Sequence record: PV435126.1
Reading direction: 5' to 3' (one strand)
Length of the DNA: 64,000 nucleotides
From: Escherichia phage EPFV3-03/2025
In this document: one piece after another, positions 718 through 34,294 of the stretch
How positions within the stretch are numbered: position 1 is the stretch's first letter
How the letters are laid out: each line of letters begins with the position of its first letter
The notes under the pieces: model-generated
Told to the model about the DNA's origin: nothing
Databases searched by the model: none
The model's input: the letters and a program-made list of their open reading frames with translations, nothing else
Program-made: the position numbers and the translations under genes

Positions 718-726
718 GGAGAAATC

Positions 727-1395: not shown

Positions 1396-1396
1396 G

Positions 1397-7830: not shown

Positions 7831-7837
7831 CTGTTTT

Positions 7838-7866
7838 GCCCTCGCTTCGGCGGGGGCTTTTTGTTT
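7838..7866 (+). terminator. rho-independent terminator (GCCCTCGC-TTCG-GCGGGGGC + T-run)
   Basis: GC stem with UUCG tetraloop followed by TTTTTGTTT, immediately after the fiber stop codon. Confidence 0.7.
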
Positions 7867-7869
7867 GTA

Positions 7870-7898
7870 TTGCGTATTAACTTAAAATCTGGTAAAAT
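7870..7898 (+). promoter_or_regulatory. sigma70-like promoter with extended -10 (TTGCGT-17-TGGTAAAAT)
   Basis: -35-like TTGCGT, 17-nt spacer, TGG-TAAAAT; same architecture recurs near 13381. Confidence 0.4.
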
Positions 7899-7929
7899 AA
7901 CTATCATATTTGTTTAACCTGGAGGCACA

Positions 7930-13337: not shown

Positions 13338-13346
13338 CCTTTAAAG

Positions 13347-13371
13347 CCCCGCTTCGGCGGGGTTTATTTTT
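13347..13371 (+). terminator. rho-independent terminator (CCCCGC-TTCG-GCGGGG + T-run)
   Basis: Near-identical hairpin to 7838 and 39512; followed by TTTATTTTT. Confidence 0.75.
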
Positions 13372-13380
13372 ATGCTCAGA

Positions 13381-13409
13381 TTGACTATTGTTACAAAATT
13401 TGGTAAAAT
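13381..13409 (+). promoter_or_regulatory. sigma70-like promoter with extended -10 (TTGACT-17-TGGTAAAAT)
   Basis: Consensus-like -35, 17-nt spacer, TGn-TAAAAT; about 35 nt upstream of the next start. Confidence 0.5.
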
Positions 13410-13442
13410 ACCTTGTAGAGATTTTCATACCGGAGGAGTGAC

Positions 13443-14933
13443 GTGGCTAAGTATGGATTGACAGAGGCTGGTTTCGTTATACCAACCCTAAATGACCTAA
13501 TCGTTGAAACTAAGCAAAGCCTGATCCGTGCTTTTGGCGAAAACTTCAACGTACAAAGTAACTCAGTTGCAGATAAGCTGACCACTATCTTCAACGAGCG
13601 AGAATATCAACTTATTCTTATGGCAGCATCTGTATACGCATCCCAGACGCTGTACGGGGCAGAAGGTATTTACCTTGATGAACTTCTTGGAAGGCAAGGT
13701 ATTTACCGGAGAGGTCGTTCTAAATCATCAGGCACTTGCCAGTTGACAATCAACACAACTGTGCCGTACAATATGATTTATGATTCCAAAACCTACACGC
13801 TGGATAGTGGCAACTTTGTTCTTAGCAGTGACGTGCAGGTGGCGGGGAATCTTATTGCTCACAGGATAAACGCTCCAGATCTAAGAATTGGTAAATACAA
13901 CTTTCAAATTACCAACCAGACAGACGGAAGTATCAAAACAAAAAGTCTGGTTTTAACCGATAAGTCTCTGGACTCTTCTGATTTGCCAAGCTTTTACGGC
14001 GAGATTAAGCAATTCATTGTCGATAATACAACCCTGTTGAACGACGATTTAATTCAGATAGATATGTTGACAGGAACGTTGTGGATAGGATACAATTCGA
14101 ATCTTGATCAAGTTGGGCTTAATAGCAGAGTAGATTTCAGAGTATCCCCGATTGTAGGTGAAAGAACTATCACCCTGGATGTTATCGCTAACGAGGCAGG
14201 TGAGCTGTCAAGAGAGGCAGAAACTGTAACAACAATGTCGCCTACTCCAAGCGGATTTATCAAACTTACCAACCGAGAAAGATTCAATGATGGCAGGGAT
14301 GTTGAGAAGGACTCAGAGTATCGCTTAAGAGCTTCCAGCACTAAGCAGTTGACATCTAAAGCTACTCGCCCTGCAATCCTTAGCGCTGTGAGTGAAGTGA
14401 AAGGTGTTGAGAAAGTAAGAGTGTTCTCTAACAACACCGATAAAACAGATGCGAAAGGTATACCACCTTACAAGTTTCAAGTGGTAGTGTTCGGTGGTGC
14501 AACAGAGGATATTTGTCAAGCGCTGTATCAAACCATAGCTTGCACAAACAGAACTTATGGGAATATCTTCTACGATATTACCACATCAGACGGTCAGACT
14601 GAAAGGATTTATTATTCTAAGGCAAACACTTACCGCCTGGATATGAGAATTACTTACTCGGGTGCTGCACTTTCCACTACCGAAAAAGATGCCATTACAG
14701 AGGCTCTTTTGCAGGTTGTTAACGGCTTGGATGTTGCCGACACGTTGTATAATATCCAATTAGTTGGCGCTGCATCGGCTGCTGTGTCAATAGGCAGATT
14801 TAACAGACTTGTAATTCAAGTTAAACCTGTGGGAGCCTCTGACGAAGCTTACACTACAAACGATATTGTTGCAAACATGACCGAGGTGTTTGACCTCGAC
14901 GAAAGTAATATAACTTTCCAACAAACTATTTAA
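13443..14933 (+). CDS. putative baseplate J-like protein
   Basis: 496-aa ORF (GTG start after GGAGGAG RBS); N-terminal region reminiscent of baseplate J family; position in tail module. Confidence 0.4.
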   Translation: MAKYGLTEAGFVIPTLNDLIVETKQSLIRAFGENFNVQSNSVADKLTTIFNEREYQLILMAASVYASQTLYGAEGIYLDELLGRQGIYRRGRSKSSGTCQLTINTTVPYNMIYDSKTYTLDSGNFVLSSDVQVAGNLIAHRINAPDLRIGKYNFQITNQTDGSIKTKSLVLTDKSLDSSDLPSFYGEIKQFIVDNTTLLNDDLIQIDMLTGTLWIGYNSNLDQVGLNSRVDFRVSPIVGERTITLDVIANEAGELSREAETVTTMSPTPSGFIKLTNRERFNDGRDVEKDSEYRLRASSTKQLTSKATRPAILSAVSEVKGVEKVRVFSNNTDKTDAKGIPPYKFQVVVFGGATEDICQALYQTIACTNRTYGNIFYDITTSDGQTERIYYSKANTYRLDMRITYSGAALSTTEKDAITEALLQVVNGLDVADTLYNIQLVGAASAAVSIGRFNRLVIQVKPVGASDEAYTTNDIVANMTEVFDLDESNITFQQTI

Positions 14934-14944
14934 GGCGGCGAGAT

Positions 14945-15631
14945 ATGGCAGAGATTAAGTCGGATGTCAACCACATCCACACTCTGCCAGATTTTGTTCA
15001 GGGAGGTCTTGACTACCTGCCTGGAGATTTTCTGGCTGAGAAGGTTAATTTAGTCACATTCTTAACCGTGTACCTTAAAAGGTTGGAGAATGTTGATAAG
15101 ATGCTGGTAGGTTTGGCTGAAGGAAGACTGCTTAACAATGCCAGCGGAAGATACCTTGACGAAGTTGGTAATCAACTCGGTATTCTTAGGAATGGGCTTT
15201 CAGATGCAGATTTTCGTGCTACCCTGGTTATTCAGCAAGCAGCAGCATCAAGGGGCGGGACTCGTGAAGATGTCATCTCAACCTTGCGACAATTGTTCGG
15301 AAGAGACAATTTCGATACGTGGAAAGGTGACAACTTCAGATTTGACATAAATATTAGAAAAACTTGCTTTGACATATTACAGTCCATAGATCAGATCTTA
15401 GATATGCTGCCATTGCCTTGTCATTTGCGTCTTACAGAATCGCAAGGGCAAGCTTTTGGTTTTGAAGGGGACTCCACAGCTCTTGGCTTCGGATCAGTAT
15501 GGGAAGAAAACCAGTTCGGAGTTGGTGGGCTGGCTACTTTGCTGTATGTTCCTGACGTAAGACCTGATTGGGACACCACAACTATTTATTGTGAAAGTAT
15601 TATAGTAAACGCAACTAGACAGGAGGGTTAA
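14945..15631 (+). CDS. hypothetical tail/baseplate protein
   Basis: 228-aa ORF, tightly packed with neighbours. Confidence 0.5.
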   Translation: MAEIKSDVNHIHTLPDFVQGGLDYLPGDFLAEKVNLVTFLTVYLKRLENVDKMLVGLAEGRLLNNASGRYLDEVGNQLGILRNGLSDADFRATLVIQQAAASRGGTREDVISTLRQLFGRDNFDTWKGDNFRFDINIRKTCFDILQSIDQILDMLPLPCHLRLTESQGQAFGFEGDSTALGFGSVWEENQFGVGGLATLLYVPDVRPDWDTTTIYCESIIVNATRQEG

Positions 15632-17703
15632 TGGCAATAGCTGTTTTTAAACCTTACCGTGATTACTCTACAATGGCTGCACGGTTTCATTATCGCACAG
15701 TTCAAGATACTGCCGTTCCAGGCAGGGATTATGATCATGTTGAGGGCGATGTAACTATCCCGGTTGGGGCAACCAGTATTGAGATTCCTGTAGAAATTGT
15801 TGACAAATTGCCAAACAGGTTGCCAAGAAGCTTCTTTATGGAGTTTTCATCAAACTCCCAAGGGGTTATGATTGGAACACAAAGAGCAAAATGTACAATA
15901 GTTTCAGATGAGAATCTTGACAGAATATCTTGGGATACCGTTGAGGAGAGGATGTTTCACCCAAGATATTGGGTTACAAACACACAGCAGACTGAAAGCA
16001 CCTGTATTGTTGCGGATAATAACTGCTGTATTAACCGTTTAGTGTCAAGAACATATGGAGGCATGGCTGGGTGCATTTGGGAAACAGTTGACAAGTATGA
16101 CCATTTCGGCATTGGATTTGATGATCACTATGAGATGAGAAACACCAAGCTTTGGTTCAGAATGTCAATAACTAATGCCAGCAACTTCTCCACCCCTGAA
16201 AAGATGATTATGACTGTAGACCTTGTTGATGGCACAATCATCTATGTTCCTTTAGCTCAATATGCTGTCAGCATCTCAGAGGATAAGAATGTTGCAGAAA
16301 TTCATATTGATTTCGAGGACTGCGTCGGGATGGACCAGAACAACAACATGATGGGTGTTGATCCTCGACAGGTGAGAAGGATTCTAATACCCCTTATGCC
16401 TAAAGATTGGGTAAGTAATAGCACAGACCCAAGAACGGAAAATGTAGAGTGTGAGTTGCGCCTAGATTTGCTTCAGCCAGATACAGGCTGGAAAATGATG
16501 CAACTTAACAATATTCAGGTGAGAGAGCACGACGTTGGGATCTGCACCGCATATGACGATATGTGGAACGTATCTCCTTTAAGGGTGTTGAACAATATCA
16601 AGCGTCTGGGCTATACCGGAACCATAAACCATTATGTTGGTATGAGTCATTATTATGACTACACATGGTCAGGAACCCAATGGTCTATAAACAGAACAGG
16701 AGCGCTAAACGCTGCAGCTTATAAATGGCATGATGATTTTATGTACAATGCCAAACGACATAACTTCGACGTTATGCAATCTGTAAGTTTTGAGCTTTTC
16801 AGCGATGCCTGCCCGTTGGAATGGACCCAAAGAGACTGGAACGATAACTACGCTAAAACAGGATATACACCTTGTAGCTACCTCCTGTCTCCAACCATTG
16901 AAGAGGGTATGAATTTCCTTACTGCAGTATTTAAGAATTTTGCATCAGCCGCTATGAGAAACAACCTGCCAGTAATTATGCAGATTGGTGAACCGTGGTG
17001 GTGGTTCAATACCGATACTCGTAAGCCTTGTATTTATGACTACCCTACAAAACAGGCGTTTTATGATGAGACTGGTGAATATGCACTAGACATTGGGACT
17101 ATTGACGATCCTAAAACTGGTGGTGTTTATGACAAGTATGTAGCATTTTGTCGTGGTAAGCTTGGCGCTCGTATTGCAGCTATTTCAAAGGCAATAAAAG
17201 CACACGCTGCATCGGCTCAGATGACAGCCTTGCTGTTTTTCCCAACCATTATGGAAACCGAGCTTACGCAAAAACTGAACCTTGCCGACCAATATAAAAA
17301 GGAAGCAGGCGCTCTTGATTTCTTCTGCACTGAGTGCTACGATTGGGTGATGCAGGGTGGTATTGAAAAGGCAAAAGAGTCTGTAAACATACCTATCGTT
17401 AAGTTAGGTTGGCAACCGTCTGAAATACAATACCTTGCAGGGTTCGTTCCTAGCAAAGAGCTTGCTCCGGTATATGGCTACGACCCAACCAGGAATTACC
17501 AAGAATTTTTATGGAGATGTATCTGCGGGAACATGGCAACCATAGAGTATAGATACCCTGAGGTAAAACAGTATGTGTGGGCATACCCGCAAGTAATGTC
17601 TGACAGCATCACTGTTACCGCCAGAGATTCTACCGTGCTTCATATGGGGCAGGTTGCTCTGAAAGGGTATGTAGAAGATGTTGTCCCGCCAGACTTCTCA
17701 TAA
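15631..17703 (+). CDS. hypothetical structural protein
   Basis: 690-aa ORF; start overlaps the previous stop (translational coupling). Confidence 0.5.
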   Translation: MAIAVFKPYRDYSTMAARFHYRTVQDTAVPGRDYDHVEGDVTIPVGATSIEIPVEIVDKLPNRLPRSFFMEFSSNSQGVMIGTQRAKCTIVSDENLDRISWDTVEERMFHPRYWVTNTQQTESTCIVADNNCCINRLVSRTYGGMAGCIWETVDKYDHFGIGFDDHYEMRNTKLWFRMSITNASNFSTPEKMIMTVDLVDGTIIYVPLAQYAVSISEDKNVAEIHIDFEDCVGMDQNNNMMGVDPRQVRRILIPLMPKDWVSNSTDPRTENVECELRLDLLQPDTGWKMMQLNNIQVREHDVGICTAYDDMWNVSPLRVLNNIKRLGYTGTINHYVGMSHYYDYTWSGTQWSINRTGALNAAAYKWHDDFMYNAKRHNFDVMQSVSFELFSDACPLEWTQRDWNDNYAKTGYTPCSYLLSPTIEEGMNFLTAVFKNFASAAMRNNLPVIMQIGEPWWWFNTDTRKPCIYDYPTKQAFYDETGEYALDIGTIDDPKTGGVYDKYVAFCRGKLGARIAAISKAIKAHAASAQMTALLFFPTIMETELTQKLNLADQYKKEAGALDFFCTECYDWVMQGGIEKAKESVNIPIVKLGWQPSEIQYLAGFVPSKELAPVYGYDPTRNYQEFLWRCICGNMATIEYRYPEVKQYVWAYPQVMSDSITVTARDSTVLHMGQVALKGYVEDVVPPDFS

Positions 17704-17715
17704 TCAGGAGATAAA

Positions 17716-18756
17716 ATGTCAAAACCTAGTTTTCCATTAGAGATTTGGGCAGAGGAGGATCAGGTTCTGCCTAACACCCACAGACAGAACAGGCTACGCC
17801 CGATTGATGATTTGTGGAGAAAAGGTTGGGATCTTGGTCAAAAGCCATCCTGTGAAGAACTTAACTATATTTTCAATATGCTCGGGACTTGGGCAAAATA
17901 CATTGCTGACGAGCAGATCCCCGCTCAAGAAGGCCGTTATCTGGTACGTGATAATAACCTGAGTGATCTTTTGAACATCCCTGTTGCCCGTAGAAACCTT
18001 GGGATTATTACTAAGGAAGAGGCAGACGCCAGGTATGTAAAAGTTACAGGTGATACAATGACAGGCCCATTGGGTTTGCAACGTATCAACTTTAAAGCTG
18101 CCGAGACAGATAAGGCTTGGATAGAGACAACTATTGGCCCAGATAAGACAACCCTTGACTTTGGGTTAAGTGATAATATTGGGGCGTTCGATGATGGTGG
18201 CACATCTACAGTAGATGCGTTCCGTTGGAGATTCCAGCCAACTCAACCGGACATTAACCCAGAGTTCACTCTGATGTACCTGAACGCGATCACGGCTAAT
18301 CGTGCGTTGTTGAAAGTGGTGGGCAATGTTGAAGTTGTTGATAACATGCGATGTAATAACCTCACCATTAGCAGCACAGCAACATTCACCAACTGCAATG
18401 TAGCTAGTCAGCTGACGGCTGGGTCAGTATATGTCAATGGCGGTGCAAGTTGTGACAGTATGGTTGTAAGAAGCCAGCATTGTGTTGTCGGTAACAGAAA
18501 TGTGGTGCGCTCTGTGAATGGAGTGACGGCTAACGGCAACGGAGATGTAACGATCACCATCCCGCAGACAGGTGTACAGGATATCAGAATCGGTGCAAGA
18601 CTTGTTGATGGTGTTTCTGAATCTCCAGTTCGCAACGGCTACGTTGTCACAGGTTGGCATTTTGGTGATAAAAAAGAGATGCGTGGTTCAACCTACTGGG
18701 CAGGGCCTTTACAAAAACTTGTAAATGGTCAATGGATCACTGTTAATTATGCGTAG
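17716..18756 (+). CDS. tail fiber protein (paralog A)
   Basis: 346-aa ORF with GDTMTGPL motif typical of tail fibers; paralogous to 19769-20815 (shared N-terminus and C-terminal LVNGQWITVNYA). Confidence 0.7.
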   Translation: MSKPSFPLEIWAEEDQVLPNTHRQNRLRPIDDLWRKGWDLGQKPSCEELNYIFNMLGTWAKYIADEQIPAQEGRYLVRDNNLSDLLNIPVARRNLGIITKEEADARYVKVTGDTMTGPLGLQRINFKAAETDKAWIETTIGPDKTTLDFGLSDNIGAFDDGGTSTVDAFRWRFQPTQPDINPEFTLMYLNAITANRALLKVVGNVEVVDNMRCNNLTISSTATFTNCNVASQLTAGSVYVNGGASCDSMVVRSQHCVVGNRNVVRSVNGVTANGNGDVTITIPQTGVQDIRIGARLVDGVSESPVRNGYVVTGWHFGDKKEMRGSTYWAGPLQKLVNGQWITVNYA

Positions 18757-18770
18757 ATCGGAGGACTAGC

Positions 18771-19355
18771 ATGAAAATACTTCAAGAGTTTAAGCTTTAC
18801 CAGCCGGGATCTGGCGAATACTACACCAACAAGGAGACCAAGGAGCTGACTCCTCAGGAGGTTGAGGATTACACGGCATACACTGGATATTTTTTACGTA
18901 ATGATGATGGCGATTGGTATGTGCAATCACGAACACTACGACAAGAAAATCCAGGCTGTATCTTCCTACTTGTTGACGAGAAGGGTATTCTTAAGACATC
19001 TACAGAAGAACCTGATGCCTTGTGGCCTGCTCCAGGTCTTCGTGTGGTTATCGCCAAAAAAGAAGAGGTACCAGAAAACATTATGATCCACCACGACGCT
19101 TTGCGTTTAGTTGGTGACGAATTTGTCACAGACAATGAATTTTTTGTTCAACAGGCAGAGGGTGTCATAGAGACAGAACTTGCTTGGGCTACTGCTAGAA
19201 TTGGTGCCTATCAAGACATGATTGACCTTGAATACGATCTTACTGATGACCAAAAACGCAACATCAGAGATTTGAAAATGTACAGGGTAAAACTTCTTGA
19301 AATAGATACATCTAAAGCCCCTGACATTTTCTTCCCGGAACGACCTACCCTCTAA
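18771..19355 (+). CDS. tail fiber assembly chaperone (Tfa-like)
   Basis: 194-aa ORF; C-terminus YRVKLLEIDTSKAPDIFFPERP matches the conserved Tfa C-terminal motif; directly follows a fiber gene. Confidence 0.65.
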   Translation: MKILQEFKLYQPGSGEYYTNKETKELTPQEVEDYTAYTGYFLRNDDGDWYVQSRTLRQENPGCIFLLVDEKGILKTSTEEPDALWPAPGLRVVIAKKEEVPENIMIHHDALRLVGDEFVTDNEFFVQQAEGVIETELAWATARIGAYQDMIDLEYDLTDDQKRNIRDLKMYRVKLLEIDTSKAPDIFFPERPTL

Positions 19356-19366
19356 GAGGAGGTGTT

Positions 19367-19681
19367 GTGGAGTTGGATTTGGCGGCATTGTACGGTATCT
19401 GCATGGGTACCGTTGTCCCGATCTGTGTATGGGCTTTCAACCAGTGGCACACCAAATGGAAAGGCATTTCCAAGAGGCTGGATGAGCTGGAGAAAGACCT
19501 CATTTTAGTGAAAAATAGCATGGTTACAAAAGATAGACTTGATTCCATTATTGAGACCCGGTTAAGTAAGCTAGAGGCCGATATTAACGACCTTAAGCAA
19601 GATGTCAGGACAGATGTCTCCGGTATCAGAGCCGATGTGCAAAAGATTTTACACATGCTTGTAGAGCATAGTAAAAGGTAA
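19367..19681 (+). CDS. membrane-anchored coiled-coil protein (function unknown)
   Basis: 104 aa; N-terminal hydrophobic segment then heptad-rich region; RBS GAGGAGG. Confidence 0.45.
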   Translation: MELDLAALYGICMGTVVPICVWAFNQWHTKWKGISKRLDELEKDLILVKNSMVTKDRLDSIIETRLSKLEADINDLKQDVRTDVSGIRADVQKILHMLVEHSKR

Positions 19682-19690
19682 ACAAAGGTC

Positions 19691-19716
19691 AGAACGGCAA
19701 GGATGCCGTTCTTGCA
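19691..19716 (+). terminator. rho-independent terminator (GAACGGCA-AGGA-TGCCGTTC)
   Basis: Perfect 8-bp stem followed by TTGCATTTTGTT. Confidence 0.6.
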
Positions 19717-19739
19717 TTTTGTTCTCTAAAATGTTAAAA
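19711..19739 (+). promoter_or_regulatory. sigma70-like promoter (TTGCAT-17-TAAAAT)
   Basis: Overlaps the terminator tail; about 30 nt upstream of the fiber paralog B start. Confidence 0.4.
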
Positions 19740-19768
19740 TAGTCCTTAAGGAATTTTCTCAGGAGAAC

Positions 19769-20815
19769 GTGATGACTAAACCAGTTATCCCTCTTGATAT
19801 TTGGGCCAATCAGGATGTTGTGCTTGAAAATACAGGAGAGTTGAACAAATCTCAACCGAACAAAGAAGAGAGATTGAAAGGTTGGGATATGACACAAAGG
19901 ATAGCATGTGAAGTTGTTAACTTTGAACTCCACATGCTCTCTGCGTGGCTAAAGCATTTAACAGAAGATGTTGTCCCCGGATGGGATAATAGATTCTTAA
20001 GGGTCACTAATAATCTGGCAGACGTTCCAGACAAAGCTGCTGCACGTCAAGTTCTCAATGTATACTCGCCTGAAGAAATGGATGACCTTTATGTTGACAA
20101 GGCTGGAGACACAATGATCCAGACTCAAACTTTAGGTCTTCAAAGAATCGAGTTTGCATCCGCGTCAACAGATAGTGCGGCGATATACACCACCATAACT
20201 CCAGACAAGACGATGATGGATTTCTGGATTATGGACAACATCGGTGGTGCTGACGGCACAGACCTTGATGATCCCTCTCACCAAATAGACGGTTTCCGTT
20301 GGAGATTTCAACCTTCTGGTGGGCAGCCTGTGTTTTCGGCTATGAAGCTCAATGCTATAACTGCCAACCGTGCAAGACTGGCTATCCAAGGAAATCTTGA
20401 ATGCAATGATGCAAAAAGCTCCTCTGCAAATGCTAATGCGGTAACGATACCCAGATCCACTGTTAATGGGCAACAATCCTGCGGCAGCGCTCAAATAGGT
20501 GGAAGAGTAGATTGTAACGATAAAACCGCCAGAGGTCAATATGCAACAGTTGGTGGAAGAAACGTGGTCCGCAGGGTAAATGGTAGTAGCGCAGACAGTA
20601 GTGGTAACCTTACTATTCCTATGCCTAGTAGGGGTGTTGAAGATGTAAGGATAGCAAACCGTTTCAGAACCACCTACAGAGAATCAAGAGTATACCCTGG
20701 GCATGTAATGTGCTCCGGCAATTACGCATATAAACACCCGTATCAGGGCGACTATTGGACTGGAGCCATTCAAAAATTTGTAAACGGTCAATGGATCACC
20801 ATATCTTATGCTTAA
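19769..20815 (+). CDS. tail fiber protein (paralog B)
   Basis: 348 aa; GDTMIQT motif; C-terminal FVNGQWITISYA; homologous to 17716-18756. Confidence 0.7.
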   Translation: MMTKPVIPLDIWANQDVVLENTGELNKSQPNKEERLKGWDMTQRIACEVVNFELHMLSAWLKHLTEDVVPGWDNRFLRVTNNLADVPDKAAARQVLNVYSPEEMDDLYVDKAGDTMIQTQTLGLQRIEFASASTDSAAIYTTITPDKTMMDFWIMDNIGGADGTDLDDPSHQIDGFRWRFQPSGGQPVFSAMKLNAITANRARLAIQGNLECNDAKSSSANANAVTIPRSTVNGQQSCGSAQIGGRVDCNDKTARGQYATVGGRNVVRRVNGSSADSSGNLTIPMPSRGVEDVRIANRFRTTYRESRVYPGHVMCSGNYAYKHPYQGDYWTGAIQKFVNGQWITISYA

Positions 20816-20824
20816 AGAGGGTAA

Positions 20825-21091
20825 ATGAAATTAACTCAGTTTTTATGGGGACTGGTTGCAGCATCTGATGACCCTACAAAAGTGTCCCAATCTAAGCTAT
20901 GGTCAAACATAGGCATGGCAGTGATGACTGGGGTGTTTATTCATATGGGGTACAATGATACGCTTCCTGAATGGTATGCGTGGATATACGCACCTTCAGT
21001 AGCTTGCCCCCAGCTTATTAGCAAATTCATCTCGCTCCGGTGGGGTTGCCAGCACCCTGACCACGTTAAAAACGAAGAGCAAAAAGCTTAA
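20825..21091 (+). CDS. small membrane protein
   Basis: 88 aa with hydrophobic segments; function unknown. Confidence 0.4.
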   Translation: MKLTQFLWGLVAASDDPTKVSQSKLWSNIGMAVMTGVFIHMGYNDTLPEWYAWIYAPSVACPQLISKFISLRWGCQHPDHVKNEEQKA

Positions 21092-21100
21092 GGAGAAATC

Positions 21101-22846
21101 ATGGCGCAAGACATGACAAGCTTTGAGCAGGCGGTAGATCAAGTAATTGTTGATTCTGAACGTTTGCACCTGATTGTCAACGGTAACGCTGTGGATGAAG
21201 TTGTCGTAGAGGATGGGACCACCATCCCTACGGTACGAAAAGCCATGCTTGACACCCTTTATTTTAAAACGCCACCAATCCCTTGGGCGTATGGTGCATC
21301 CACAACAGTTTTTAACCAGTTGTATGAGTTTAAAGGGGATACAGGCCCTCAGTGGTGGTACGCCCCAGCAGCATCAAAATCTAACCCGGTTAGGATGCCA
21401 GCAGATCCTTCACAATCTCCGAACTGGAGATTATATACCGATTCTGCAGTAATGGCAAAATACTACGCAAAACTTAACAGCCCAAGATTCGAAGGTGACC
21501 CGCGAGTACCTACACCTCCAATGGACGATAAGTCCGAGTCTATAGCAAACACAGAGTTTGTTGTGGACTATGTGGATAGCATATTTAAAGCCATGGAGGG
21601 GATGAAAGTTACTGTAGGGTCTTTGGTGGTAAAAGGTCTTACAGAACTTGCTAACACCATAGTTGGTGGCACCCTTACCTTACACGGGCCTGTTAATGGA
21701 GCGGATTCTACTGCACGCTTCAGGAACCTAATCCTTACTGCAAATACTTCTACACTGACTTTTGCGTGGAGCGATCCTAAGCATGCAGACTGGAGAAGCA
21801 CAGAGCTGCAACCTCATGAAGTGGTCACCCACAGGGTTATAGCTGACACTATAACTTCTGGGAAACCAGTGGCTAATAATAACGATGTGCATTTTGATGG
21901 TCTAGGTAATAACTTTTTTGACTACGTGTACATTCGTGGTAACTCCATGAAGGCAGCAACCGAACCGACATTGCAGGTTGATGGGACCACCAGGGTTAAG
22001 AACCTTGAGGTGACAGGCACCGTTACAGGGATAACCTACTCTGTAGATGGCACCATGATCTACCCTAGCTATATTGAAAGCACGGGAGATGCACTGATCA
22101 ATGGAGATTTAGAGGTTGGCGGATCTATAGTCATTCGTGGCACAGCATCTGTCCAGAACATATCTTTAAACACTCTGAGGGTGAATGAGCGTGCCACTTT
22201 TGAAGGGGAAGGGCTTACCGCCAACAAAGGTACGATTACCGAGCTGACAACCACTACTCTAACTGCAACAACTGCAAACTCTGAAAACTGCAACGTTACC
22301 CGCAACTTGCAGGTAAATGGAGATGTTAGTTTAAACGCAGCAGGTACGGGAACCACTTATCTTCACAACCTTGAAATATCCGGCACGGTGACTGGGTGGC
22401 TGCCAGACTTCTCTAATGTTAACTTTGTCTGCAACGGCATTAACTCCAGTGGTAAGATAACCACCTCTCAAGAAATTGAGGCTGGTAAAACTATTACTGC
22501 CCCTACTTTCCACGCAGGGAAGGTAGATTTTGATTTAGAGGAGGTTGACGCATCTAGTGGGACATGGACACCTAACGGGCAGGCCAGCATGTATGTTGTC
22601 CACGCGAAAGGGGATTTTACAATAGGCCAATGGCCTGGGACATCGGCTGAAGATAAACCTTACCCGTTTACTGCAATCATCTATGTCATTCAAGATGCTG
22701 TAGGCCACAACGTGACTTTGCACGATAAATATGCCATACTGTCGGCTACCCCTGTCATTAACAACAAAGCCAACAGCGTTACCTTGCTACAATTGACATA
22801 TTGTGGTGTTGGTGATATTGTGGATGTGGTTATTGCACAACGTTAA
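21101..22846 (+). CDS. tail fiber-like protein
   Basis: 581 aa; N-terminal region with SESIANTEFV-type motif and repeated beta-rich GTVTG segments; RBS AAGGAGAAA. Confidence 0.55.
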   Translation: MAQDMTSFEQAVDQVIVDSERLHLIVNGNAVDEVVVEDGTTIPTVRKAMLDTLYFKTPPIPWAYGASTTVFNQLYEFKGDTGPQWWYAPAASKSNPVRMPADPSQSPNWRLYTDSAVMAKYYAKLNSPRFEGDPRVPTPPMDDKSESIANTEFVVDYVDSIFKAMEGMKVTVGSLVVKGLTELANTIVGGTLTLHGPVNGADSTARFRNLILTANTSTLTFAWSDPKHADWRSTELQPHEVVTHRVIADTITSGKPVANNNDVHFDGLGNNFFDYVYIRGNSMKAATEPTLQVDGTTRVKNLEVTGTVTGITYSVDGTMIYPSYIESTGDALINGDLEVGGSIVIRGTASVQNISLNTLRVNERATFEGEGLTANKGTITELTTTTLTATTANSENCNVTRNLQVNGDVSLNAAGTGTTYLHNLEISGTVTGWLPDFSNVNFVCNGINSSGKITTSQEIEAGKTITAPTFHAGKVDFDLEEVDASSGTWTPNGQASMYVVHAKGDFTIGQWPGTSAEDKPYPFTAIIYVIQDAVGHNVTLHDKYAILSATPVINNKANSVTLLQLTYCGVGDIVDVVIAQR

Positions 22847-22854
22847 TATATCTG

Positions 22855-22880
22855 ACCGCTCCTGACGGGGCGGTTTTCTT
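22855..22880 (+). terminator. putative terminator hairpin (ACCGC...GCGGT + TTTTCTT)
   Basis: 5-bp GC stem with 9-nt loop and T-rich tail; weaker than the others. Confidence 0.35.
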
Positions 22881-26743: not shown

Positions 26744-28521
26744 TTGAGTGGGGTCTGGTGAAAGATGCTCGCGTATTGATGGGTCAACAACTTGCTGCTG
26801 CAATAGGACCTAACGCAGTGCAGTCTGTCAAACCAGCGTGGTTCGATATCCCAATATGGTCATCTGGAACACCCGGAACTGCGGCAATCAACCCTACCAC
26901 CGGGGATCTGGAAATCTCTTGGGAGGACTTAAAGCAGGTTGGTGGCTGGGATAAGACAGGGTACCAGGTGCAATGGTGGAGATCTGACGGATCGTTAGCA
27001 GCTGATGAGTTTGTTAAGGACAATTTCTACACCATGTCCTCTGCAAAAGCACAGCAATTGTTTGGTCAGGCCACTCCGTCAACGATCACCATGTCCATGA
27101 GTTGTAAAGACAACAGGACTGGAGCTCTGGGACCAAGGGTTGCTAAAGTTTTCTCAGGTATTAAATGGAATCTCCCTGTTCAAAGTGTTTCATGGAAGCA
27201 AATAGGTGATAACAAGCTGCTGGTTACCCCAGCTTGTCAGTTCAACGCAACTCTTAACGTTGATCCTGCTGTTGCGGCAAACTCAGCTAAAGCTTCTGAC
27301 TTCTCTGTGTCTAACACTGCTATGGCAGATGTGAGGAAGATTGACACGCTGAACGCCAGAATTACCTGTAAAAACACTTATGGCACATTCCAGATCATCA
27401 ACAACTTCACAGATGCTGATTCTAAGGTAGTGAGGACAGCAAGCCAGACTCTGAGTTTAGGAACTCTGGCCTACGCGGCCCTGATCACTGAACAGTCGGC
27501 AACACTCCAAGGAGGCGGTGTAGGCAAGTCCATTGCAACACCTGTGTGGAAGCCAAATGAGTGGGTTGTGTTCGATTTGACTGTGGACTTCTCCAGCGAT
27601 AATAACTGGACATGGGTAAGGAATTGCTTGTCACAACTGATGGGTGGTCCAAGCTCCGTTAGTGATAGCCACGACTCCACTGACCCGAGTGTGTTTCAGG
27701 TGGGTAAAACTCACCCGGAGACTGGGGCACCGTTGCCTGACAGGAAGTATGCTTTGGTTTGCATCTCCAACGGCAAGGCAGATGTAACCTTCTCAGGGAC
27801 ACACACATATAACGGCACTTACAACTTCTCTAAAAAGTACAGCCTCAAGGCAGGTAACATTGTAGATGAAGTTGGTGCGTTGTATAATCCAGGTAACGGC
27901 ATAGGGATTGTAGGTGGTAAACTGCAGATGCAGGAACCTTCTATTACCCCTTCCAATGTGCCAGGAATCAGAAAGACTTGGGAAAGTAGTAATACCAACA
28001 TTGCAACAGTGGATGCTACCACAGGGCTGGTAACATTTAAAGCTACTGGGAATGTCACCATAAAGTTTGTAGTTACAGATGATGCAGGGCGCAAAACGTC
28101 TTCAACATCTTTTACTGTCAAACAGATGGCACCACAGTGGAGAATGTGGATAGGTACAGCAACAAACGGGGCATATCCTAATCCGGCAGGGACTTCTGGT
28201 ATGAAGACTTTCTCTACAAGCAAGCCGATGGAGTACGGCAGCGGTCCTAAGGTAGGGCAGATGGTGTACTTTGGTGCGTATATTCCTGAAATTATAGGGC
28301 TTCCGAGAAGTCAGATTCAGTTGCTGTTTGGGGCTGGTGTTGACGATCTTGCCACTTTCGGGTATAGAGACAACATCGAGGCTGCAAGGAGTTCAGGATG
28401 GGTAGGGTTCAGAATGGAGTCTGGAAAGGAAGGCAGGATTCTAGGGACAGCCTCTATAGGTGTTATGTTCCCTGGTGACCAGCAGTATCGTCTAGAAGCC
28501 TACGCAACATTTTCTCGTTAA
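26740..28521 (+). CDS. structural protein with bacterial Ig-like domain
   Basis: 593 aa; start overlaps previous stop (ATGA); segment NIATVDATTGLVTFKATGNVTIKFVVTDDAGRKTSS resembles a Big_2-type Ig-like domain. Confidence 0.55.
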   Translation: MIEWGLVKDARVLMGQQLAAAIGPNAVQSVKPAWFDIPIWSSGTPGTAAINPTTGDLEISWEDLKQVGGWDKTGYQVQWWRSDGSLAADEFVKDNFYTMSSAKAQQLFGQATPSTITMSMSCKDNRTGALGPRVAKVFSGIKWNLPVQSVSWKQIGDNKLLVTPACQFNATLNVDPAVAANSAKASDFSVSNTAMADVRKIDTLNARITCKNTYGTFQIINNFTDADSKVVRTASQTLSLGTLAYAALITEQSATLQGGGVGKSIATPVWKPNEWVVFDLTVDFSSDNNWTWVRNCLSQLMGGPSSVSDSHDSTDPSVFQVGKTHPETGAPLPDRKYALVCISNGKADVTFSGTHTYNGTYNFSKKYSLKAGNIVDEVGALYNPGNGIGIVGGKLQMQEPSITPSNVPGIRKTWESSNTNIATVDATTGLVTFKATGNVTIKFVVTDDAGRKTSSTSFTVKQMAPQWRMWIGTATNGAYPNPAGTSGMKTFSTSKPMEYGSGPKVGQMVYFGAYIPEIIGLPRSQIQLLFGAGVDDLATFGYRDNIEAARSSGWVGFRMESGKEGRILGTASIGVMFPGDQQYRLEAYATFSR

Positions 28522-28538
28522 CAAGGGGGTAAATAAAA

Positions 28539-28564
28539 AGGGGCCAAACGGCCCCTTTCTTTTT
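28539..28564. terminator. bidirectional rho-independent terminator (AGGGGCC-AAAC-GGCCCCT flanked by A-run and T-run)
   Basis: Perfect palindromic stem between convergent genes at the strand switch. Confidence 0.7.
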
Positions 28565-28568
28565 ATAG

Positions 28569-28772
28569 TTAGTAATACTCCCAACATGCCCCATCTTCAG
28601 ACGGCTTGACGCGCTTACCTTTATGGTCAACATAGGTATAGCCACAACCTTCACAAATAACAGGTGCTGCATAGCCGCCTTCCTTCCACTGATCCTCAGT
28701 GATCAGACCTTCCAAATCTTTGCAGTCAAAGCCAAACAACTCTTCAGAGCAATCTTTACAAAAATCAGCCAT
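28569..28772 (-). CDS. small zinc-ribbon protein
   Basis: 67 aa with two CxxC pairs (CKDC...CEGC). Confidence 0.5.
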   Translation of the reverse strand: MADFCKDCSEELFGFDCKDLEGLITEDQWKEGGYAAPVICEGCGYTYVDHKGKRVKPSEDGACWEYY

Positions 28773-28775
28773 TTC

Positions 28776-29240
28776 TCAGTCCTCGCATTTAACAAATTTT
28801 TCTATAGATCCACCAAGCACAGCTTGTTGTTTGATGGCACTTTCTTCATCATAGTGGATAGACTTATGTTCCGTACCTCCAAACTTACCTGTGTGGAAGG
28901 TGTGCACCCAAATCTCTTTAGGAAGGGATTTATTCTCTTCCTCCACCAACTCCCACATACCCCACAAGTGATCTGTGATATCTCTGATGAAATATCCCTC
29001 GCCGAGGTTTGTATTCACACTATAAGCTGATTCGTGATCTCCGCAAATATAACGGAAGGCAGTGTACTCTTTACCTGGTGTGAAGTGAGTATCCATTAGT
29101 ATGGCTGTTAAAGAATAAGGGTCTCGAAAGCCCAAGAACTTTAGTTTAACAATTTCGACATCTACCTCTGCAAGATTATCCATGACGATCTCCTCTGTTT
29201 GGTTGGTGAGAATTATATATAGATCTGGTGTTGGTGTCAA
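28776..29240 (-). CDS. hypothetical protein
   Basis: 154-aa ORF in the minus-strand cassette. Confidence 0.5.
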   Translation of the reverse strand: MTPTPDLYIILTNQTEEIVMDNLAEVDVEIVKLKFLGFRDPYSLTAILMDTHFTPGKEYTAFRYICGDHESAYSVNTNLGEGYFIRDITDHLWGMWELVEEENKSLPKEIWVHTFHTGKFGGTEHKSIHYDEESAIKQQAVLGGSIEKFVKCED

Positions 29241-29344
29241 GCTTAATTTTAAGAGATCTGAGAGGGTATTTTATTCAGGGAGGCAATCGCACAGGGTTGG
29301 GAAATTTATGAAGGCACAGGCCTCGTTTGAGGCCTTAAAATAGA

Positions 29345-29728
29345 TTACGACGATACCTTGACGGGTTTATCTGATAAGGCTGGGAAGCCTAAAGCAGCAC
29401 CTAGACCGCCATACGCTATCCACCATTGAAGTTCATCGTGACACCATTTTCCAATCAAGAAGGTGCTGTAGTAGCGGGTCAGTATCTTGGCATAGGCTTT
29501 AGGATCTGCATCCTCAGGTATGATAATGCTTGGTGGGCGTTTGTTATGACCACAGCAGCAGTTTAAAGTCTTCAATCCTGCTGCCCATAGACTCATGACA
29601 GGCTTAGCCATGCACTTATCAAGGCACACACGTTTTTTGCCGTCACGGAGCTTTTTAGGCACATCAACGATAACATTTTGATGCTTGGCACCTTTCACTT
29701 TCCAATTATAGGATTTACACTTGCACAT
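29345..29728 (-). CDS. hypothetical Cys-rich protein
   Basis: 127 aa with CKCK and NCCCGH motifs; possible metal-binding protein. Confidence 0.45.
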   Translation of the reverse strand: MCKCKSYNWKVKGAKHQNVIVDVPKKLRDGKKRVCLDKCMAKPVMSLWAAGLKTLNCCCGHNKRPPSIIIPEDADPKAYAKILTRYYSTFLIGKWCHDELQWWIAYGGLGAALGFPALSDKPVKVSS

Positions 29729-29946
29729 TTAATCAGTCCCCATTTAGAAATCCACACTATTACGTTTTTGAGGCATACCTTACTTAAAGTCTTTATCACC
29801 TGTTACGATTGCACGAATCCACTCATTGTGATGCGTAATGGCGGCAAGGTGTAACATAATGTGGTGATTGTCATTGCCAAGCACGGCGTGATAAGTTTTA
29901 GCAACACCCTGATATAACTTCCACATCAAGTAATGGTATCTTCGTT

Positions 29947-30426
29947 TCATGGCTCTTTCTCCGGTTCAGGATCTGGGTAATCTTCAATAATAAAGGGCCA
30001 TCCGTTACGCTTAGCGTCAGACTTATACTCAATTTCCTTCATTGCAAACTCTAACTGATTCTTGGCCGGAATGCAAGCTGGAGAATCATCAACCCAGATG
30101 TCTGGGTAGATATCAAACTGCGCCAGATAAGCGGCCTTCTGAACGCCTCCAGTATAAAACACTCCAACATCGAGCTCCTTGCGCCAGTATTCAATGTCCA
30201 CATTATCTTGAGTGATGAACCGAAAAGTCACAAGGTAGACTGTCCACCCTTCCTTCTTCAGGTCCTTAATCAAGCGGGAGAAGATGAAAGGGCTCGCATT
30301 AAACGTTCCATCAAAGTCAATGGCAATGATATGCGTGCCGTGGCGAGTCTCATATGGATTGCTCGTGGTAAGATTGCTGTAGTTAAAAGGCACTTCTTCC
30401 CCGCAGTAGCTGTAGTCCATATTCAC
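29947..30426 (-). CDS. HAD-superfamily phosphatase-like protein
   Basis: 159 aa; IIAIDFDGTF matches HAD motif I (DxDGT); WVDDSP resembles motif IV. Confidence 0.55.
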   Translation of the reverse strand: MNMDYSYCGEEVPFNYSNLTTSNPYETRHGTHIIAIDFDGTFNASPFIFSRLIKDLKKEGWTVYLVTFRFITQDNVDIEYWRKELDVGVFYTGGVQKAAYLAQFDIYPDIWVDDSPACIPAKNQLEFAMKEIEYKSDAKRNGWPFIIEDYPDPEPEKEP

Positions 30427-30698
30427 ACCTTCTCGTTGATAAATTTACGGGCGGTTTGGTGAGTTGTTTCCGCTGTCTTTAGAATAATATCGATCTTATT
30501 GTCAAGATCATTCATCTCAGCAGTTAATTCAGGGATCTCTCCAGCATGCATGGTGAAATCATACATAGACATGCCTATAATCTCATTGATGCGGCGGTTG
30601 CATTCTGCAGCACGCTGGTTCATTTTCCAAGCTAATACCAAAGCCTCCTGCGTGGCTTCTAGTGCAAAGTCTAATACATCTGCCTCTTCTTTCGTCAT
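30423..30698 (-). CDS. hypothetical protein
   Basis: 91-aa ORF, overlaps neighbour by 4 nt. Confidence 0.45.
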   Translation of the reverse strand: MTKEEADVLDFALEATQEALVLAWKMNQRAAECNRRINEIIGMSMYDFTMHAGEIPELTAEMNDLDNKIDIILKTAETTHQTARKFINEKV

Positions 30699-30753
30699 CT
30701 CAGTCTCTCCTGTTTATTGTTGATAGGTGTATGAATGCCTTATAACTAACTCT

Positions 30754-31320
30754 TTATTCAAATTGCAATAGCAAGTCCACCACCGCGCTAGGCCTGTCAA
30801 CAAACTCCCCAGGTCCGCATGCCCACAGAGGGTATCCGTCCACATACCTCCATATCCAACCTGAAGTGTGGAGCTCAAGAAGGGCAGTACCATCCTTACT
30901 GTTAACAACTCTTTCCCACAGTGTTGGGCAGCGAAGCTTTAGGATAGGATCCCCACCCTTATACCCGTCCATGTAGATACCCATTGCAAAGTTCAGCATC
31001 ATCTTTTTGTGCACTGACCTCTTACTGAGGGTGCTCATCACTTCCTCCTTGTGGATGTTTGTAAGCTTCTCCTTGGCTACCTGCAGATCGTTGCAGCCAT
31101 TGTTCAGAAGATCTTCCAGACACTTTACCCTAAGGTCGTGGATATCTTTGTCGTGCACCGTTGGTACAGGGTCGTAGCGATATAGCACTGTTGATACAAG
31201 GTTGCTAGGGTGTGGGTCTGACAGCAGTCCATAACCCCAATACTCTTCTGTATCTGAAAGGACAAGACACCCAATATCTCTGTCAAGCTTTCCTGTGTTG
31301 TAAGCCACATTGACCGCCAT
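30754..31320 (-). CDS. hypothetical protein
   Basis: 188-aa ORF. Confidence 0.5.
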   Translation of the reverse strand: MAVNVAYNTGKLDRDIGCLVLSDTEEYWGYGLLSDPHPSNLVSTVLYRYDPVPTVHDKDIHDLRVKCLEDLLNNGCNDLQVAKEKLTNIHKEEVMSTLSKRSVHKKMMLNFAMGIYMDGYKGGDPILKLRCPTLWERVVNSKDGTALLELHTSGWIWRYVDGYPLWACGPGEFVDRPSAVVDLLLQFE

Positions 31321-31322
31321 GA

Positions 31323-31568
31323 TTATAGCTCCACTAACAAAGTGCTTTCAAAATGCCTCTCATGCAGACCGCTATAAGGAACCACTTCCACAACACCGTC
31401 GCGGATATATGGAGTCATCATGGCAACATAATCACCGAATGGGTGGGCATTATCACTAACCACAACCACATGCTGCCCCTCCTTGGCAGAGTGCCAGATA
31501 GATCTGCATTTCATCATGTGTTCGAGAGCGCCAGGTAAAATCTTGTTACGTTCTTTACGGGTCTTCAT
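31323..31568 (-). CDS. hypothetical protein
   Basis: 81-aa ORF. Confidence 0.4.
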   Translation of the reverse strand: MKTRKERNKILPGALEHMMKCRSIWHSAKEGQHVVVVSDNAHPFGDYVAMMTPYIRDGVVEVVPYSGLHERHFESTLLVEL

Positions 31569-32014
31569 AACAGGTATAGCTCCTTATGAAAGTGGGCTTT
31601 CAATTTCTCACCGAGAAACTTCTTGATACCTTCCTCTAAGGTGTTTTCGATGTAGTCCAGCTTAACTGCTTCGATGGACATATCATAGATCGCCAGCTCT
31701 AAGCTGTCAAGTCCCATCATAGCATGAACCATAAGATTTTCATCTTCAGATACATTCAGGGGGCTTCCTATAACATCTGGAGGCAGAATAGTTTCCCAAT
31801 TATTCTGGGTGGTAGCTCCCCCGCCATCCACCTTACGTCGCAGCTCGAAGGTGTTCTTAGTGTAAAACACTTCATAAGAAACGATACGACTATCGCTCTC
31901 GTAATAAACGAAGTTAAGGTAGGAGCCGAGCCGTAGTCGGCAAACTTCTACCCCAAACCATTGTTTCTTATAAGAATTCAGGCTAATGCTGTCGCATTCA
32001 CGTTTGCTCAACAC
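31565..32014 (-). CDS. hypothetical protein
   Basis: 149-aa ORF. Confidence 0.5.
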   Translation of the reverse strand: MLSKRECDSISLNSYKKQWFGVEVCRLRLGSYLNFVYYESDSRIVSYEVFYTKNTFELRRKVDGGGATTQNNWETILPPDVIGSPLNVSEDENLMVHAMMGLDSLELAIYDMSIEAVKLDYIENTLEEGIKKFLGEKLKAHFHKELYLL

Positions 32015-32029
32015 GGCTCTCTCCTTTTG

Positions 32030-32263
32030 TTAATCTTCGTAAATCAGGATCTCTGCTTTAGGTTTTCGTGCTTTCAGGTCCAGCTCTATCCAGTGCACCA
32101 TAGCTGTTTCAAGAAAAACAGCCTGGATGCATCCGTCTTCAGCGTGTCCTACCAACATAACAAGATCTTCACCTTCGTCATCTTCATCACGAACATACAA
32201 AATCTCTCCGGACTCAAAGTCTTTTACAACCTGATTATTAGATAATTTACGAATTTTTGCCAT
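32030..32263 (-). CDS. hypothetical acidic protein
   Basis: 77-aa ORF. Confidence 0.45.
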   Translation of the reverse strand: MAKIRKLSNNQVVKDFESGEILYVRDEDDEGEDLVMLVGHAEDGCIQAVFLETAMVHWIELDLKARKPKAEILIYED

Positions 32264-32264
32264 A

Positions 32265-32528
32265 TCAGAAACCCTCTAAAAAGCTCTTGTAGAAAATAAT
32301 CTCAGTATCTACACCAGTCACGATCTTGTCGTTCCTGATTTCATCTGTAAGATAGGTGTCAAAACGCAGAACCTGTGTGGTGTTGTCACACATCCACTCG
32401 GCTGTGACCATGGCAAAAATCTTAGCATCTTCATTGTCCGGTGTGAATGTTACCACCTCACCGCATTTAAATTTTTCGATAGGCTGCGTGTTAGCTTTCG
32501 GTTCTGCAATGGTGATTTTTGTGGTCAT
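32265..32528 (-). CDS. hypothetical protein
   Basis: 87-aa ORF. Confidence 0.45.
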   Translation of the reverse strand: MTTKITIAEPKANTQPIEKFKCGEVVTFTPDNEDAKIFAMVTAEWMCDNTTQVLRFDTYLTDEIRNDKIVTGVDTEIIFYKSFLEGF

Positions 32529-32794
32529 TACTCTTCCTCCATAGTTTCACCAAATACTTCGATACGAGCGTCAAGCTCTGTTGCTTTCAGTTCTCCAACA
32601 AAATCTTTCAGTTCTTTCTCGTCAAGATCATATGCCCACACACAAGATGAGCATGCAGATTTCACGATCAGCAGTGTAGATACACGGCCTGACTCTGTAA
32701 TCATGCTCACAATGGTTCCTACAGGGAACGTGTTGATAGCTTTTTTAACTGGGCGTTCAGCTTTAATTACCACTTCTGTTGCCATAAATAACAT
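32528..32794 (-). CDS. hypothetical protein
   Basis: 88-aa ORF. Confidence 0.45.
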   Translation of the reverse strand: MLFMATEVVIKAERPVKKAINTFPVGTIVSMITESGRVSTLLIVKSACSSCVWAYDLDEKELKDFVGELKATELDARIEVFGETMEEE

Positions 32795-32800
32795 CCTCTC

Positions 32801-34282: not shown

Positions 34283-34294
34283 TGGCCCCTGTCA

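Follow-up and report, generated by a model that had tools for sequence, protein, structure and literature searches.

Two short tail fiber genes of common descent, together with a single Tfa chaperone gene, form the core of the locus described here, which occupies positions 17,716 to 20,815 of a 64,000-nucleotide stretch of Escherichia phage EPFV3-03/2025 (PV435126.1; that whole stretch is referred to below as the window). The window belongs to a Vequintavirus, an rV5/FV3-type E. coli myophage, and the locus is its short-tail-fiber locus. Taken as a whole, it very probably encodes two short fibers of the phage Mu GpS type, a canonical copy (paralog A) and an old, fast-changing copy (paralog B), with one Tfa for the pair. 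The paralogy, the suggestion that two lipopolysaccharide (LPS) chemotypes are recognized, and the link to Mu were published in 2013 and 2021, and the finding is therefore already known: two paralogous short fibers with one chaperone are a textbook-level annotation of the group, to which it adds nothing new. The three genes at issue, with protein lengths in amino acids (aa), are as follows.

17716 to 18756, + strand: short tail fiber paralog A, orthologue of rV5 gp33, 346 aa (phrog_4465, E = 2.3e-171)
18771 to 19355, + strand: Tfa chaperone, orthologue of rV5 gp32, 194 aa (Pfam PF02413 Caudo_TAP; phrog_136, E = 8.8e-37)
19772 to 20815, + strand: short tail fiber paralog B, orthologue of rV5 gp30, 347 aa from its ATG (phrog_4465, E = 1.1e-162)

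An initial annotation, made from the sequence of the window and a list of its open reading frames (ORFs), had described the fibers as duplicated genes, naming similarity limited to low-complexity segments as the observation that would speak against this and pairwise alignment with per-site divergence as the check. The two proteins align from end to end with 43% identity and 58% positives (BLASTP, E = 5e-95). Because this full-length alignment holds with composition-based statistics, the similarity is not one of low complexity, and chance resemblance is ruled out on the same grounds; A and B are true paralogous fiber genes. The match to phrog_4465 spans A residues 1-346 (profile positions 1-342) and B residues 2-348, the latter counted in the 348-aa translation from the GTG at 19769. 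Identity is unevenly distributed along the proteins. In A numbering, it is 38% across residues 1-105, peaks at 57% in the proximal shaft (residues 106-205), falls to its minimum of 23% in residues 206-255, and stands at 47% both in residues 256-300 and in the tip, the last 46 residues (301-346). The GDTM motif and the C-terminal VNGQWIT[VI][NS]YA are present in both fibers, as had been noticed at first inspection; the accompanying picture of conserved N-terminal and extreme C-terminal blocks does not hold, the best-conserved block being A residues 106-205.

Divergence at the nucleotide level indicates an ancient event, as had been proposed. Third-codon positions are saturated between A and B (DNA identity 37-61%), and at identical residues their agreement is no higher than saturation predicts. 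By blastn, the two genes match only over 49 nt, at their extreme 3' ends. The saturated synonymous sites and this single short match mean that the duplication is old, and they rule out that gene conversion has recently acted on the two window genes. Both copies also occur in two diverged relatives, designated L012 and L010.

The N-terminal ~100 residues of both proteins are predicted to form a joint that docks on the baseplate wedge. A residues 1-108 match the short tail fiber of phage phiTE in PDB entry 9cuy (E = 1.8e-19), as do B residues 2-84 (E = 2.3e-8), and residues 3-92 of the phiTE fiber are the joint on wedge protein 1 (PMC11972413). In A, the joint (residues 1-~105) is followed by a shaft carrying a GDTMTG motif and by a Mu-GpS-like tip (residues ~286-346), in which residues 286-343 match Mu S residues 440-501 (5yvq, E = 4e-6). 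AlphaFold2 monomer models of A and B have a common secondary-structure layout, and the sole significant Foldseek match of either model in the PDB is 5yvq_A (E = 3.4e-7 for A, 9.8e-7 for B), from the entry titled "Complex of Mu phage tail fiber and its chaperone". Structure prediction of the distal domains, which the initial annotation had recommended, was thus informative in part: it returned a local match to 5yvq_A for both fibers, from models of low confidence. No T4 gp12 chain appeared among the PDB matches at E <= 1 for A or B. The two proteins have in common the extreme C-terminus YW.G..QK.VNGQWIT..YA, while the loop region of their tips in the window (TGWHFGDKKEMRGS versus SGNYAYKHPYQG) is wholly different.

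The Tfa ORF scores 45.8 bits against PF02413 Caudo_TAP (cutoff 22.1, E = 8.8e-12). This gene lies directly downstream of A only; B is followed by an 88-aa gp29-like gene. That only A is followed by a Tfa chaperone, as originally remarked, agrees with a phmmer search in which we found no second Tfa in the 64-kb window, nor a third fiber copy or any other fiber-like or Tfa-like ORF. A phmmer search of the window Tfa against the PDB did not reach Mu GpU. Across nine genomes, the identity of the Tfa C-terminus tracks that of the A-type tip, a comparison confounded by shared ancestry; this covariation would fit a module of tip and chaperone. The rV5 counterparts of all three proteins, gp30, gp32 (Tfa) and gp33, have been detected in virions by mass spectrometry (PMC3606486). 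The tips would need the Caudo_TAP chaperone for folding and, since no chaperone gene accompanies B, the one Tfa most likely serves B as well and would then fold both tips. The conserved extreme C-terminus of A and B may be a shared handle for Tfa.

The two fibers differ in their rates of change. Relative to the window orthologue, identity of A is 98.3-100% within the genus, 88% in L012 and 73% in L010; for B it is lower at each of these distances (94.8-99.7%, 77% and 47.5%), from which we conclude that B changes about twice as fast as A. Both genes are under purifying selection, each tip strongly so: the ratio of nonsynonymous to synonymous substitution rates (dN/dS) stands at 0.02 in A against 0.055-0.08 in B, with the lowest values, 0.004-0.04, in the tips. 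Each of the single-copy orthologues of other genera is closer to A than to B, and A is closer to them (47-51%) than it is to B (44%); the identity of A to fibers of single-fiber genera spans 37-51%. Within docking residues 1-70, 28 positions show at least 90% conservation across 18 single-copy orthologues; seven of them (P19, R28, I30, W34, G41, K43 and Y51) are altered in the B clade and none in the A clade. We take a remodeled docking joint in B as a lead, not as a result.

The tips differ in distribution as well. Tips ~60% identical to the A type are found in phi92-like phages, in PVP-SE1 and in some Salmonella siphophages, whereas outside the genus nothing exceeds 42% identity to the B tip. 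Compared with rV5, Bas55, Bas59 and phita32, the stretch encoding the B tip (20675-20812, residues 301-346) has a synonymous divergence (dS) of 1.4-2.1 with one amino-acid change, against a dS of 0.15-0.5 for the rest of the B gene between FV3-type and rV5-type phages. This pattern suggests a recombined 3' end under very strong constraint at the protein level. The details of the asymmetry (the roughly twofold rate of B, the changes in its joint, its genus-specific tip and the selection on the tips) were not found in the published accounts consulted.

The diverged relative L010 (a metagenomic sequence, ENA ERZ15185469 NODE_327, with its two-fiber locus at 116-3618) has two fibers whose last 46 residues are 89% identical and whose N-terminal parts are 37% identical. 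The tip DNA is only 75% identical between them, and a recent conversion was rejected on this discrepancy; the likeness of the tips stems from an old exchange or else was inherited from a common ancestral tip. A state with two fibers and one tip type is thus evidently viable. In L010 the Tfa has 204 aa, and the gp29-like protein has 117 aa by virtue of a ~30-aa C-terminal extension. In phage V18 (L018, NC_041937, 1146-2186) the A gene has lost 1 nt near codon 26 in comparison with the window and is annotated as a 5'-truncated coding sequence. A sequencing error may account for the deletion; were it genuine, paralog A would seem to be dispensable.

The fiber and Tfa genes belong to a run of five closely packed + strand genes in the ORF list, each preceded by a Shine-Dalgarno (SD) sequence and flanked as a group by two lateral fiber genes that serve here as context only. 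All four ORFs of the initial annotation (A, Tfa, the gp31-like gene and B) are present where it had placed them on the + strand; to these we add a second small membrane gene in the cluster, which follows B. The remaining features are listed below.

15631 to 17703, + strand: lateral fiber gene, orthologue of rV5 gp34, upstream context outside the duplication (Calx-beta, NCTSP_N and NCTSP TIM-barrel domains)
19367 to 19681, + strand: gp31-like membrane/coiled-coil protein, 104 aa (phrog_5345, E = 1.1e-48)
19691 to 19722, + strand: terminator-like hairpin with a 9-bp stem, 4-nt loop and T-rich tail (terminator scan)
19712 to 19741, + strand: promoter-like element directly upstream of B (TTGCAT, 17 nt, TGTTAAAATA, an extended -10)
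20825 to 21091, + strand: gp29-like small protein, 88 aa (phrog_1322 "membrane protein", E = 2.7e-32)
21101 to 22846, + strand: lateral fiber gene, orthologue of rV5 gp28, downstream context (phrog_4549, E = 5.8e-250)

The ~5-kb region has 98.8% DNA identity to Escherichia phage FV3, whose A protein is 100% identical to that of the window, and it matches 116 phage records, every one of the rV5 type. Compared with their rV5 counterparts, the A, Tfa and gp31 proteins are 98.8%, 98.5% and 98.1% identical, gp29 is 100% identical, and B stands lowest at 95.7%. Public annotations label the five genes, in order, as (short) tail fiber, tail fiber assembly protein or chaperone, hypothetical or membrane protein, (short) tail fiber, and membrane protein. 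The start of B is most likely the ATG at 19772 rather than the GTG at 19769, with AGGAG better spaced at 6 nt upstream; read from this ATG, the N-terminal MTKP aligns with the MSKP of A. The gp31-like ORF has a strong SD site, GAGGAGGT, upstream of its GTG start at 19367, and an internal ATG used by some public annotations is without a comparable site.

Comparison with sister genera places B in the position of another gene. In six genomes of Seuna-, Mydo-, Henuna- and Avunavirus (L003, L004, L005, L007, L008 and L009, among them Seunavirus PVP-SE1, 4MG and EspYZU14 and Mydovirus KpS8), the order is one fiber, Tfa, a 104-aa protein, a ~157-aa protein with four transmembrane segments (4-TM), an ~88-aa protein and a gp28-like fiber. 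Paralog B is located exactly where these genomes have the 4-TM gene (phrog_7451, annotated as 133 aa in an Erwinia phage). The 4-TM gene is absent from the window, both as a remnant and as a relocated copy. It occurs in 107 phage records of other genera, only 16 of them Escherichia records, compared with ~116 Vequintavirus records, and no rV5-type phage was among the listed matches; Certrevirus genomes also carry it. On this comparison B appears to be the newcomer in the slot and the gp31-like gene the ancestral resident. We found no description of the replacement of the 4-TM gene by B in the published accounts consulted, nor of the gp31-like gene as an old companion of the chaperone.

The junction upstream of B is distinctive too. 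In the sister genera the genes at this point overlap by 4 nt and thus have no intergenic terminator or promoter in the slot. In the window, a gap of 90 nt (19682-19771) separates the gp31-like gene from B. Its hairpin folds at -18.7 kcal/mol (z = -4.8) and, being terminator-like, would close a unit that runs from the wedge gene (13443-14933) through gp35, gp34, A and Tfa to gp31. The fold reaches -16 kcal/mol in rV5, is weak in L012 and is not significant in L010, so that the hairpin is strong in the rV5-type clade only and was rejected as a conserved feature. A scan of the window for TTGCAT-N14-20-TAAAAT matches the promoter-like element and nothing else; its motif is kept in rV5, Bas55, L012 and L010, though the flanking proteins are only 47-77% identical. 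We infer a promoter function for this element, which was not found in the published accounts consulted.

The arrangement of hairpin and TGGTAAAATA recurs at ~7.85 kb and ~13.35 kb. At all three sites (7835-7899, 13345-13410 and 19691-19741), a GC-rich hairpin and a T-run are followed by a -35-like hexamer (TTGCGT, TTGACT or TTGCAT), a 17-nt spacer and TGnTAAAATA. This threefold module resembles a terminator with an extended -10 promoter behind it and would split the tail genes into several units. B probably heads a unit of its own with gp29 and gp28, ending at the terminator-like hairpin that the terminator scan placed after the gp28 gene (22854-22875).

We propose the following explanation for these features. 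Both fibers would form trimers on the baseplate wedge, as homologues in the literature do, and their tips would most likely contact the LPS core, as terminal receptor, at the irreversible step of binding; the analogy with Mu, the LPS-core dependence of these phages and the conservation of the tips make such binding likely. A would be the canonical copy, having kept the docking residues of single-copy orthologues, a widespread tip type and an adjacent, co-varying chaperone. B would be an old second copy inserted, with its own promoter-like element, into the slot of the 4-TM gene. The two tips would recognize different core epitopes, and B would dock differently from A. Receptor diversification between A and B, which the initial annotation had anticipated, is plausible, given the mere 47% identity between the tips and the strong purifying selection on each of them. 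Going further, B may have been neofunctionalized, replacing the 4-TM gene, taking a different mounting site and acquiring a tip for a second LPS-core epitope while still needing Tfa, a scenario that we put forward tentatively and as less than an even prospect; if true, it would imply two rings of short fibers rather than competition for six sites.

Several points weigh against the proposed explanation. In a neighbor-joining tree the A clade has 99% and the B clade 72-86% support, and the sisterhood of A and B only 43%, so that duplication in place is not proven. The changes in the joint of the B clade come from only three sequences, and the B tip was not linked directly to Mu S by phmmer against the PDB. 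The AlphaFold2 monomer models have low confidence (pLDDT 63 and 59.5), and with TM-scores to 5YVQ of 0.16 the structural claims depend on local matches. The sharing of one chaperone by A and B is something we infer, and a single LPS-core requirement fits one shared receptor as well as it fits two.

The weak sisterhood of A and B leaves room for an origin of B other than duplication in place. B could be a xenologue from an unsampled relative, recombined into the membrane-gene slot with its own promoter, an origin that we consider possible without thinking it likely. Besides the 43% bootstrap, residues 1-205 give no A+B clade, A resembles the single-copy fibers of other genera more than it does B, and B brings a distinct intergenic module with it into the place of another gene. 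Fiber tips are also mobile, the phi92 gp147 tip being 59% identical to the A tip when the rest of that protein is only 17-29% identical. No donor was found, however: outside the two-fiber lineages, nothing in the phage collection is closer to B than ~44%, and a search of 5.8 billion proteins with A as query returned only two B-type hits (P0004 and P0006), both in two-fiber lineages. Moreover, the roughly twofold rate of B relative to A in every lineage compared accounts by itself for the long branch. Duplication followed by faster change would thus be the simpler reading of the origin of B. That A and B instead co-assemble as mixed heterotrimers into one composite fiber is very improbable. The two are of equal length and like predicted layout, and the literature places both in the virion. 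With 43% identity overall and 23% in shaft residues 206-255, however, the chains are ill suited to a regular triple beta-structure; the promoter-like elements of the two genes are separate, and the sister genera all build their fiber from one gene.

A further alternative concerns function rather than origin. Both fibers might bind one receptor, with B being redundant, adding avidity or acting mainly as a structural connector in the fiber network; we are doubtful of this. The Vequintavirinae tested all have one LPS-core requirement and their paralogs show little allelic variation (PMC8594841), both tips retain one extreme C-terminal motif, and the tips of L010, at 89% identity, indicate that two fibers with one tip type are viable; a connecting role would accord with contact between the long and short fibers of phiTE (PMC11972413). 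Against this, the tips in the window are only 47% identical with wholly different loops, and the dN/dS of 0.004-0.04 for each tip type is what a separate constrained ligand for each would lead one to expect.

The published record covers much of this ground. Kropinski 2013 (PMC3606486) described rV5 Gp30 and Gp33 as similar in size and 42.3% identical, both resembling T4 gp12 by HHpred with reported matches to 1PDI, and suggested that they recognize two LPS chemotypes. According to Maffei 2021 (PMC8594841), Vequintavirinae sensu stricto have two paralogous short tail fibers and a chaperone, with homologues in the phi92-type locus and in Mu (GpS/GpU), and the paralogs vary little between genomes; the BASEL Vequintavirinae all need the LPS core, with waaC and waaG (PMC8594841). 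Genetics of phage LL12 point to the first outer-core glucose. RBPseg (2025) fitted one such fiber into 7-9.5 Å maps of two Vequintavirus baseplates, a resolution at which paralogs A and B are not separable. In phi92, the single homologue gp147 forms six trimers on the wedge protein gp145 (PMC13450770).

Compared with known systems, rV5 gp33/gp32/gp31/gp30/gp29 and the BASEL Vequintavirus phages have the identical locus and gene order; nothing essential differs, the window being of the FV3 type. Mu GpS/GpU (5YVQ) is alike in its related tip domain, where the GDTxxG motif aligns with GDTLSG of S, and in the Caudo_TAP chaperone gene directly downstream, with the chaperone reported in virions. Unlike these fibers, Mu S (504 aa) has an N-terminal part without detected relation to A or B, and unlike Mu, the window has two separate fiber genes, predicted to be permanently expressed, only one of them with an adjacent chaperone. 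An invertible segment supplying alternative tips is not known at this locus, although no search aimed at one was made. Phi92 has the same triad of fiber (gp147, fiber III), Tfa (gp148) and small membrane coiled-coil protein (gp149), with a tip 59% identical to that of A; it differs in its single fiber gene, in a shaft only 17-29% identical and in the location of its gp29-like gp144 elsewhere in the genome. The order of fiber, Tfa, 104-aa, gp29-like and gp28-like genes is that of Seunavirus PVP-SE1 gp46-gp42 and of Mydo-, Henuna- and Avunavirus, all of which differ in having the 157-aa 4-TM gene in place of paralog B. T4 gp12, whose chaperone is gp57A, is unlike A and B in being one gene with fibers folded under the baseplate and in lacking any match to either at E <= 1 in the PDB sequence searches. 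It is alike in presumed role, as a baseplate-attached fiber that binds the LPS core as terminal receptor (PMC8594841).

These phages are of practical interest, as rV5-like phages, with their broad host ranges, are often considered for use in phage therapy and food safety, and it matters for host-range engineering which fiber makes the final, irreversible binding step. The modest question raised here is why the genus keeps two short fibers when its relatives keep one, and where B sits on the baseplate. The asymmetry between A and B, the joint changes and private tip of B, and the replacement of the membrane gene make that question easier to test.

The gp31-like protein has one transmembrane segment (residues 5-23) followed by a coiled-coil-like region of ~80 aa. 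A membrane/coiled-coil ORF at 19367-19681 had been recognized correctly at the outset; its description as an unrelated gene within the fiber cluster did not stand up, as a homologue follows Tfa in every sister genus examined. The homologues in Seuna-, Mydo-, Henuna- and Avunavirus have exactly 104 aa and an identical transmembrane position (5-23), and phi92 gp149, directly after the phi92 Tfa, is a distant homologue. The gp31-like gene is therefore an ancestral neighbor of the chaperone and not an intruder. Its protein oddly combines strict conservation of length with a lineage-specific jump in sequence: the Vequintavirus form has only ~32% identity to those of the other genera, which closely resemble one another. 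In rV5, gene 31 is listed as a 104-aa "membrane protein, 1 TMD" (Table S3, PMC3606486).

An i-spanin identity for the gp31-like protein was rejected. Its N-terminus is acidic and K/R residues follow the membrane segment, so that by the positive-inside rule the coiled coil should be cytoplasmic, a predicted topology opposite to that of an i-spanin. The overlapping ORF at 19362-19508 is without a lipobox, and the spanin pair lies elsewhere, adjoining the terminase gene in rV5 and PVP-SE1 (PMC7344957). The only Rz-like phrog match was a weak one to phi92 gp149 (E = 8.8e-4), and a homologue search with the gp31-like protein found only close relatives without a function.

The gp29-like protein has two weakly hydrophobic segments and a charged C-terminus, with no 19-residue window reaching a Kyte-Doolittle value of 1.6, and no match in Pfam or NCBIfam. 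Its gene is not near the endolysin gene; the holin candidate proposed by Kropinski is gp129 (PMC3606486). At 51% identity to homologues in single-fiber genera and 33% to phi92 gp144, the gp29-like protein is an ancestral neighbor rather than specific to B. NCBIfam gave no match for any of the five proteins, and none of the libraries searched (Pfam, phrogs, NCBIfam and the homologue search) assigned a function to the gp31-like or gp29-like protein. The rV5 supplementary tables confirmed the published annotation, and no peptide-level data for gp29 or gp31 were found in them.

Among the flanking genes, the gp34 orthologue matches PF23845 (E = 2.8e-80) and PF23844 (E = 9.3e-14), and genes of its type are labeled "lateral tail fiber with glycosidase and deacetylase domains" in the BASEL annotation. 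A 2026 preprint identifies the NGR-glycan-binding protein of such phages as the deacetylase-domain fiber, with phi92 Gp142 as the example and rV5 gp34 unnamed. Precomputed Pfam hits for the gp28 gene in related contigs are Phage_phiTE_241_N and _C. The gp35 orthologue, a second baseplate wedge protein (14945-15631), has 228 aa here and 225 aa in Avunavirus, whereas in Seunavirus, Mydovirus and phi92 its length is 209-210 aa. Its longer form goes together with a gp34-type fiber gene, not with the second short fiber.

Approximately 16-21 "Campylobacter phage" records, with Campylobacter jejuni as host label, have ~95% DNA identity to positions 17000-22000 of the window and contain both fiber genes; these host labels look doubtful. 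Elsewhere in the window, GC skew and AT skew are negative over ~7 kb (~28000-35000) and then recover, which is consistent with a block of opposite-strand genes.

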